A stretch of 21,045 nt of DNA from Thermoproteota archaeon (lineage in GTDB: Archaea; Korarchaeota; Korarchaeia; B14-G2). Below are positions 535 to 724 of the stretch, one piece after another; within the stretch, counting starts at the first letter, position 1, and every line of letters starts with the position of its first letter. The notes beneath the pieces were generated by a model. That model was not told the origin of the DNA, did no database searches, and worked only from the letters and a program-made list of their open reading frames with translations. Position numbers and translations under genes: made by a program. The DNA lies in contig JAVCBW010000050.1 of the NCBI GenBank assembly GCA_037917675.1, forward strand, positions 1-21,045, given 5' to 3'.

Positions 535-724
535 CCAGGTGGCCGCAAGGCCCCCTGGGGAGGCAACCTTTCTCCGGCTGCCTAGGTCCTTCAAGCGTAA
601 GTTTTCTCCCACTCAAGTGTCGTGGGAGTGTCCTTACGCTTACATCATGTTCCCACGGGCGGAAATGGGGTTTCACTGTAGGCTGGTCTAGCCACCTCCA
701 CCCCGCCGGGTTCCCGTGGGGACC
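535..724 (-). other. pre-rRNA 5' leader (5' ETS) made of four consecutive hairpins
   Basis: Lies between the predicted TSS (~724) and the 16S start. Stems: CCCACGGG/CCCGUGGG (720..652), AAGCGUAAG/CUUACGCUU (641..593), AGGCAGCC/GGUUGCCU (583..561), CCAGG..GGCC/GGCC..CCUGG (558..535). Confidence 0.75.

Follow-up and report, generated by a model that had tools for sequence, protein, structure and literature searches.

The rRNA leader and its H/ACA-type hairpin

The window analysed here is a stretch of 21,045 nucleotides (nt) from the genome of a Thermoproteota archaeon of the Korarchaeia (GenBank assembly GCA_037917675.1, contig JAVCBW010000050.1, positions 1 to 21,045 of the forward strand). 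The genome of the window is designated G000 and that of its sister species G001. The 5' part of a 16S ribosomal RNA (rRNA) gene, model positions 1-515, is found at 1..534 on the minus strand, where it is cut by the contig end. Ahead of it on the same strand is an H/ACA-type hairpin (722-648), located between an A/T-rich, TATA-like box of the rRNA operon promoter (TTAATAAG, 745..752) and the 16S 5' end. An original prediction had described this element as an H/ACA-like guide hairpin at the very 5' end of the precursor rRNA (pre-rRNA). The stems, internal loop and kink-turn (K-turn) that it listed were all located on the minus strand as described, in 722..648.

The hairpin is built as follows, with all positions on the minus strand. 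The lower stem, H1, has 8 base pairs (bp), formed by CCCACGGG (713..720) and CCCGUGGG (652..659). It opens into a pocket with a 5' strand of 8 nt, AACCCGGC (705..712), and a 3' strand of 7 nt, AUUUCCG (660..666). The upper stem, H2, has 5 bp, GGGGU (700..704) with ACCCC (667..671). An apical module of 28 nt (672..699) consists of a K-turn, GGAG facing AGU-GAA, and a capped C-stem hairpin, GUGGCU-AGACC-AGCC(U)AC. The ACA box (648..650) follows H1 after one spacer A (651). The distance from H2 to ACA had been given as 15-16 nt; it is 16 nt in G000, or 15 without counting A666, and 14-17 nt in other genomes. The register of the C-stem is ambiguous and can be read as G29-C47 followed by two mismatches or as G30-C47/U31-A46 with a bulged U. 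Two substitutions in G001 preserve the second reading. The G001 hairpin has few substitutions overall, and pairs are kept (U-A to U.G in H2; G-C/U-A to G.U/U.G in the C-stem).

The claim that this is the architecture of archaeal H/ACA guides was upheld. The available text of PMC2377435 describes the Pyrococcus H/ACA RNAs by an H1 of at least 7 bp, an H2 of at least 5 bp, an apical part of 8-35 nt, pocket strands of 5-11 nt and an ACA flanking H1. The hairpin matches this descriptor with its H1 of 8 bp, H2 of 5 bp, pocket of 8/7 nt and apical part of 28 nt. It also has the form of an H1 of at least 7 bp followed by ACA/ANA, a pocket of 5-11 nt per strand and an H2 of 5-6 bp under a tandem-G.A K-turn, and across relatives it is a conserved, covarying single hairpin with K-turn and ACA. 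A permissive Rfam scan of window positions 520-870 (351 nt) returned eight matches at E <= 10. Among these, the Pyrococcus H/ACA guide Pab160 (= Pf9, RF02796) matched the hairpin at 31.2 bits (E 0.0018), under its gathering score of 47.4. The Pab160 alignment runs over the full length of the hairpin, from the lower stem through pocket, upper stem and K-turn to ACA. The K-turn-like motif has U at L3 and tandem G.A pairs, with the GA on the 5' strand oriented as in that alignment. A whole-genome search of G000 with Rfam Pab160 gave no match, and Pab19 (RF02794, gathering threshold 55 bits) gave none at E <= 10 in window positions 520-870. As a single sequence, the fold is unremarkable (minimum free energy (MFE) -34 kcal/mol, z = -1.19), and 25 of 200 shuffles were equally stable. 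It is the weak Rfam H/ACA match, together with phylum-wide conservation and compensatory changes, that raises the hairpin above chance.

By the first match of a regular expression, the start of the A/T box precedes the opening base of the lower stem by 28-37 nt in 22 of the 26 genomes aligned. In the remaining four, the expression took a more distal A/T box, and a proximal box is visible by eye. The archaeal TATA box usually lies at -26/-27 from the transcript start. From this spacing and the distance of the A/T box, the rRNA transcript is predicted to start within a few nt of the hairpin. A search of sequencing runs listed no RNA run that contains this DNA; two DNA runs contain it, which may be the source samples.

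A second leader hairpin, UAAGCGUAAG ... CUUACGCUUG, is present at 592..642 (minus strand); the H/ACA unit precedes it, and the processing-stem region of 16S follows. It has a 10-bp stem that encloses AAAA and a small inner hairpin. Counterparts of this hairpin (GUGAGCGCGAGG..CCUCGCGCUCGA) were recognised by eye in other genera. Upstream of the rRNA promoter are two intron-bearing tRNA genes on the minus strand, 1037-947 and 933-864. ARAGORN called one of the two (Gly-GCC, 91 nt). The other has only a partial Rfam match (model positions 8-63, 32.3 bits), and its sequence suggests insertions at unusual positions. Beyond them, on the plus strand, is a gene for Nep1/EMG1 (1099..1797; PF03587, 149.3 bits, cut-off 28.2). 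It is transcribed away from the tRNA-rRNA cluster, at a distance of about 380 nt from the hairpin. Nep1 is described in the available text as the pseudouridine-N1 methyltransferase that acts on the helix-31 loop of 16S rRNA. Nep1 is also beside the rRNA cluster in G001, and it was not found in the fetched 16S flanks of the other genomes.

The 16S gene of G000 is split over two contigs (window 1-534 and C60:1-698). Model positions of about 515-770 are missing from the assembly and lie outside the target scan of G000. In the complete genome G004, the 23S gene (C1:1328000-1331600) carries an insertion of about 540 nt relative to that of G000 (BLAST gap 2226 to 2770). For one window protein, the closest named records are those of Ca. 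Methanodesulfokora washburnensis, Ca. Korarchaeum sp. and the isolates Kor1 and Kor2.

Conservation and covariation of the hairpin

The phylum was sampled with 43 genomes. The class accounts for 40 of these, 34 of them with an assembled 16S 5' flank. Every one of the 37 phylum genomes in which that flank is assembled has a homologous hairpin between the A/T box and the 16S 5' end. In the class, 34/34 such genomes have a hairpin of the same design, ending in ACA, between a TTTATATA-type box and 16S. In the three genomes of the other two classes (3/3), an H/ACA hairpin was identified by eye straight after the TATA box. The position between a promoter-like box and 16S is therefore kept throughout the class and in the other phylum genomes.

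BLAST of the leader found the sister species only, and the homologs came from covariance models and from fetched 16S flanks. A covariance model built from two sequences (R1; G000 and G001) gave weak matches upstream of 16S in another family. A second model (R2), built only from Korarchaeia-type hairpins, gave one match per genome, adjoining 16S, in 32 of the 43 phylum genomes. The 11 genomes without an R2 match comprise six without an assembled 16S 5' end, two (G019 and G026) in which the hairpin was recognised by eye, and the three of the other classes. These last three were missed by the filtered search and scored 29.7, 17.7 and 8.4 bits with filters off.

Both stems covary strongly in the rRNA leaders of relatives, as the guide hairpin of the original prediction would require. 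In the R1-fitted alignment, which leans towards its model, 98.6% of 278 cells are paired, and double changes occur at 11 of 19 pairs. This alignment covers 21 of the 27 sources searched (E <= 0.3), the weaker matches labelled g5 and some labelled g2 being left out. When the partner was slid by 1-3 columns, pairing fell to 32-57%, and the covariation score was reached by 0/500 shuffles. Changes on both sides were seen at 7/8 lower-stem pairs and 4/5 upper-stem pairs.

A further alignment (A3) holds 26 sequences, with 19 distinct guides, picked from 33 hairpins; the omitted ones are mostly identical duplicates. Applied to 26 sequences aligned by MAFFT without regard to structure, RNAalifold recovered the lower stem, with 7/8 pairs compensated, and the upper stem in part. 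Both pocket strands are unpaired in this consensus, which argues against an alternative fold that closes the pocket. The two elements central to the earlier claim, ACA and the GA/GA pairs, are present throughout: ACA is invariant in 26/26 aligned sequences, and the 5' GA and a 3' GA preceded by U were seen by eye in 26/26. On the 5' strand of the pocket, the CCCGG core occurs in 23/26 (exceptions G012, G026 and G019). On the 3' strand, a UCC core occurs in 26/26 and UUCC in 24/26. H2 and two C-G pairs of the K-turn together make 9 bp in other genera.

The apex is more elaborate in most of the class. The motif C(C/U)GA .. UGAAGG .. loop .. CC(U/C)GA .. xxUGAGG is present in all genera except that of the window, and not in G030 and G028 (g5). 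In this motif, two tandem G.A blocks turn their C-stem sides towards each other, with only 1-4 bp in between. Candidate readings are two K-turns that share a C-stem of 1-2 bp, a K-turn with a K-loop, a continuous helix that includes both G.A blocks, or alternative folds.

Complementarity to 16S and related leader guides

The pocket was compared with 5,455 nt of pre-rRNA in a genus-averaged scan that used the 26 aligned guides (19 distinct). The top site was the 16S segment CGCCGGGAAU|CUUACCGGGGG, with a mean score of 27.4 and 22.9 in the lowest genus. The next site scored 24.5, with 6.3 in its lowest genus. None of 60 column-permuted guide sets reached 27.4, their maximum being 24.0. On this complementarity, the helix-31/32 segment of 16S is the best-supported candidate for the target.

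Two pairing registers are possible because this 16S segment holds a near-repeat. The best site corresponds to register B, in which 4-8 bp and 5-10 bp, depending on the genome, flank 2-5 unpaired nt. With the unpaired nt in brackets, the pairing is CGGGAA[GCUCU]ACCGGG in G000, CGGGAA[UCUU]ACCGGG in most g2 guides and GGAAA[UC]UUACCGGGG in G024 (g6). Register A is placed 13 nt upstream, with UCC(G/A) facing (U/C)GGA and CCCGG(C/U) facing GCCGGG. It engages both strands of helix 31 and leaves the loop, CUCAAC, unpaired. Scored on 16 distinct guides, with g5 left out, register A gives 4-6 and 5-7 bp in 15 of the 16, and the remaining one, G023, pairs with 3 and 11 bp. Position C961 of 16S in the genus of the window, which is U in others, faces a guide G as a Watson-Crick pair. 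The target uridine of register A is taken here to be the equivalent of E. coli 966 and of yeast Psi1191, and the linker nt of register B are presumably E. coli positions of about 979-982.

A guide with a comparable pair of sites has been described. In Sulfolobus islandicus, sR435 is reported as a classic H/ACA RNA that guides 16S-U930 (= yeast m1acp3Psi1191) and 16S-U943, and pairing around both sites is markedly weak (PMC11077068, available text). Like the leader hairpin, sR435 is a single hairpin with a K-turn, a large pocket, a lower stem and ACA, and its two sites are 13 nt apart, as are the two registers here. Nep1/Emg1 is present in both organisms, and S. islandicus is reported to have Tsr3 as well. 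The available text gives no rRNA-leader location for sR435, in contrast to the hairpin studied here, and the likeness of the two is one of described architecture and target sites. In Haloferax volcanii, four unpaired target nt (UVUN) are reported to be modified when ACA is present. In Korarchaeia-type 16S, the best site has its first unpaired U at a distance of 13 nt downstream of the helix-31 U. The two registers would thus coincide with Psi930 and Psi943 of S. islandicus 16S, provided that no insertion or deletion disturbs the count of +13. Both registers appear credible because sR435 guides both sites, UVUN is modified in H. volcanii and Nep1 is encoded about 380 nt away.

H/ACA hairpins are also present in the rRNA leaders of other archaea. 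R2 found matches in one lineage only outside the phylum (sample of 108 genomes), at 29-33 bits, and Rfam assigns these to Pab19 at 50-55 bits. In genome G048, Pab19 scores 94.2 bits (24.1 bits with R2) on the same strand as 16S and 137 nt upstream of it. A similar putative hairpin was parsed by eye in the leader of G045. Under a strict descriptor, Pab19-type hairpins occur 95-99 nt upstream of 16S in at least 3/29 genomes of the phylum of G045 and in 1/145 controls. The 3/29 is a lower bound, since the strict descriptor missed the G045 hairpin. Leader H/ACA hairpins appear in all three classes of the Korarchaeota-type phylum, in one genome of Thermococcales type and in at least three further families of another phylum.

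Some further hairpins were seen in the course of these searches. In genomes of other phyla, H/ACA hairpins with Pab19-type pockets (..GGCGGC.. / CUCC) are found about 95-140 nt upstream of 16S. One of them has the 5' strand AACCCGGCGGCGGUC, a string nearly identical to GACCCGGUGGCGGUC of the g2 Korarchaeia-type hairpins, where it is partly upper stem. Off the rRNA operon, G008 has a weak R2 match (C1:91210-91294, plus strand, 20.2 bits) with a stem, a pocket-like loop and ACA, which may be a free-standing H/ACA RNA of the class.

The leader-encoded arrangement itself is already known from the Thermococcales. According to the available text of a March 2026 preprint, the 5' external transcribed spacer (5' ETS) of 34 Thermococcales rRNA operons encodes Tba19, a homolog of Pab19, and the reason why an H/ACA RNA forms part of this precursor is stated as not understood (bioRxiv 10.64898/2026.03.23.713588). 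The accessible part of the 2008 paper that defined Pab19 holds no mention of a leader location. Pab19 is described as active as a modification guide in vitro, and as pairing with 16S helix 34, GGAGG-UGC-AUGGCCGCCGUC, through the guide strands CCUCC and GACGGCGGC. For Korarchaeia-type archaea, no description of H/ACA guides was found in the literature searched.

The hairpin of the window and Pab19/Tba19 share much. Each is a single H/ACA hairpin with K-turn and ACA, on the same strand as 16S and in the 5' ETS, 100-200 nt upstream of 16S, and the Korarchaeia-type model R2 cross-detects Pab19 homologs. The window hairpin differs in that it lacks an extra 5' stem-loop, and its pocket has 8 nt on the 5' side, where Pab19 has 15 nt, and cannot pair with the helix-34 site. 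Its predicted target is helix 31 or the linker, not helix 34. A Pab19-type target in helix 34 does not fit the Korarchaeia-type pocket and is outside the ten top-scoring sites listed. Pab160, the best Rfam match of the hairpin, has as its target 16S U922 (P. abyssi), a site whose sequence is unmatched by the pocket of the window. A Pab160-type target (16S GGAGCG-U-GCGG) was rejected for lack of fit to that pocket.

Pockets differ between the lineages of the phylum. The class pocket is ..CCCGG(U/C).. and ..UUCC(G/A)... In the sister class, G042 has a Pab19-type pocket, with CCUCC and GACGGC facing 16S GGAGG[UGC]AUGGCCGUC, and this pocket tracks its own 16S (GCCGUC facing GACGGC). The pocket of G040 and G041, AAUCCA/GCGUU, agrees with the helix-31 loop that is usual in archaea, UGGAUUCAACGC. 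It fits the 16S of G040 itself less well, and the 16S region of G041 is not assembled. Judged by its sequence, the class hairpin is the Pab19/Tba19 arrangement with a different, apparently retargeted pocket.

Function of the leader hairpin

Genes for most partners of an H/ACA ribonucleoprotein (RNP) are present in G000. Cbf5 was found at 324.9 bits and Nop10 at 49.4 bits, each over its cut-off, and two proteins of the L7Ae family are over theirs (97.8 bits). The match to the Cbf5 gene (C41:37118-38099, minus strand) is split over two neighbouring frames: model positions 5-70 fall in one and 67-321 in the other, with 13 nt in between. A small intron, a frameshift or an assembly error could each account for the split. 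Korarchaeum is reportedly mentioned in a paper on archaeal cbf5 introns. Heterologous proteins, those of P. furiosus, are reported to assemble with guides of foreign origin.

The hairpin is probably a single-hairpin archaeal box H/ACA guide that forms the first structured element of the 16S-23S transcript, in its 5' ETS, with a pocket directed at helices 31 and 32 (h31/h32) of 16S. It would be transcribed together with the rRNA. L7Ae would bind the apical K-turn, and Cbf5 with Nop10 and Gar1 would bind the lower stem and ACA. The pocket strands, ..CCCGG.. and ..UUCC.., would pair with the 16S head segment across helix 31 and the h31/h32 linker, and the paired pocket would present a uridine to Cbf5 for isomerisation. 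In register A, (U/C)GGA would pair with UCC(G/A) and GCCGGG with CCCGG(C/U), the helix-31 loop would stay unpaired, and the target would be the U that is the substrate of Nep1. In register B, CGGGAA would pair with UUUCCG and ACCGGG with CCCGG(U), leaving 2-5 linker nt unpaired. The RNP may act in cis or after release. The architecture, conservation, covariation, synteny, protein genes and complementarity above permuted controls are the observations behind this reading.

A number of points weigh against it. In the target scan, one genome supplied the rRNA for all guides, and because the guides share descent the genera do not count as independent. The motif GGAA.{2,6}CCGGG is expected by chance in rRNAs as G-rich as these, with P(>=1) of 0.59-0.72 (dinucleotide shuffles, six genomes). 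The unpaired target stretch has 2-6 nt, and neither register is the canonical UN, which is unpaired in only 4 of the 19 distinct guides: G024 (g6) and G030, G028 and G026 (g5). A canonical-UN scan of the G000 rRNA pieces gave no convincing site. Register A leaves 1-3 guide nt unpaired at the top of the pocket in 15/16 guides, and G019 and G026 (g5), which have CACCGG in place of CCCGG, pair worse. The H2-to-ACA distance is 16 nt here, compared with the 14-15 nt reported for Pyrococcus. The Gar1-like open reading frame of G000 scores 23.2 bits, under the curated cut-off of 29.3. Three bp of the pocket are closed in the single-sequence MFE; the closed-pocket fold that accompanied the original prediction as a caveat was not recovered from the structure-blind alignment. 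Finally, the position 13 nt after the helix-31 U is G in G000, not U. This makes the helix-31 loop U (C60:143) the likelier conserved target in this genome and leaves the linker uridines (C60:158 and 160) as candidate alternatives.

The same hairpin could be an H/ACA RNP that acts in cis without modifying its target, recruiting Cbf5 and L7Ae and pairing with helix 31/32 as a folding chaperone or timer, in the manner of eukaryotic snR30/U17 or of snR10 in its processing role. This is improbable. Such a role would agree with a hairpin that keeps its place at the head of the rRNA precursor throughout the phylum and in other lineages, with a pocket sequence that changes between classes while its position stays constant, and with 2-6 unpaired nt rather than UN; the Thermococcales preprint, in its available text, also gives the reason for an H/ACA RNA in the precursor as not understood. 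The conserved pocket nt are, however, at the top of the pocket beside H2, as in modification guides, whereas snR30 is described as pairing at the bottom of its pocket. The Thermococcales counterpart, Pab19, reportedly modifies in vitro, both candidate sites are reported as real Psi sites in S. islandicus, and the accessible text of a review deems an snR30-like role in archaea unlikely. A more reduced role, very unlikely here, is that of a K-turn leader hairpin that serves only as an L7Ae-binding site or as a signal for processing of the pre-rRNA 5' end, without Cbf5, the H/ACA likeness being a relic. The double GA apical motif (CCGA..UGAAGG..CCUGA..UGAGG) of most genera exceeds what an H/ACA guide needs, and the single-sequence fold energy is unremarkable, both of which would suit this role. 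Against this, ACA is invariant in 26/26 sequences, and the consensus fold leaves the conserved pocket core unpaired. ACA and pocket are the features for Cbf5 binding and for guiding, and a site for L7Ae alone could do without them.

The original prediction had aimed the pocket at the variable loop and T-stem of tRNA (tRNA-Ala/Arg-like), and a guide with such a tRNA as its main target is the least probable of the readings considered. The neighbouring tRNA does have CGGAGG-U-C-GCGGGUU, and when the G000 genome was scanned for a bipartite canonical target with UN unpaired, a tRNA-like site on C41, GCGGAGGU[UG]CGGGUUC (score 37), was joint top. To that degree the genome scan bore the proposal out, but another site has an equal score, many are close behind, and 509 sites genome-wide are over the threshold. 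The tRNA pairing also contains a G.G mismatch within the 5'-guide duplex and uses G000-specific bases (GGGAA before CCCGG) that vary between genera. The proposal was not supported: it depends on the genus-specific AA before CCCGG, and in a phylum-wide scan the conserved complementarity lies in 16S. With a tRNA scan that covers G000 only, a tRNA target is considered unlikely.

The reading of the hairpin as a 16S-directed guide can also be compared with yeast RNPs. In the available descriptions, formation of Psi1191 in the helix-31 loop is guided by yeast snR35 before Nep1 and Tsr3 act, and snR30 is an H/ACA RNP required in 18S processing. Both differ from the leader hairpin in that they have two hairpins, act in trans and are encoded outside the pre-rRNA, and the likeness is one of description only.

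Archaeal H/ACA guides are generally regarded as small RNA genes that stand alone, and a guide within the rRNA precursor has so far been noted for the Thermococcales only. The same arrangement is here fixed across a second, distant phylum, with a different pocket whose predicted reach includes Psi sites that are known from a crenarchaeon. In the genus of the window, the guide also has as its neighbour the gene for the methylating enzyme of the helix-31 pseudouridine. These observations combine into a testable case for a functional position in the precursor, through delivery in cis or through timing, and they provide a comparative series in which one scaffold carries a retargeted pocket. It is possible, if rather doubtful at present, that the tethering of an H/ACA RNP to the pre-rRNA 5' end is ancient and widespread in archaea, and that the scaffold of this RNP has been kept while its pocket was retargeted within the 16S head. 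If so, retargeting would have taken place among neighbouring sites of the head, namely helix 34, the helix-31 loop and the h31/h32 linker. Acting in cis, such an RNP would time the first step of the Psi to m1Psi (Nep1) pathway and would keep strands of the head domain apart during transcription. It would then be an archaeal forerunner of the eukaryotic processome snoRNPs of the snR35 and snR30 kind.

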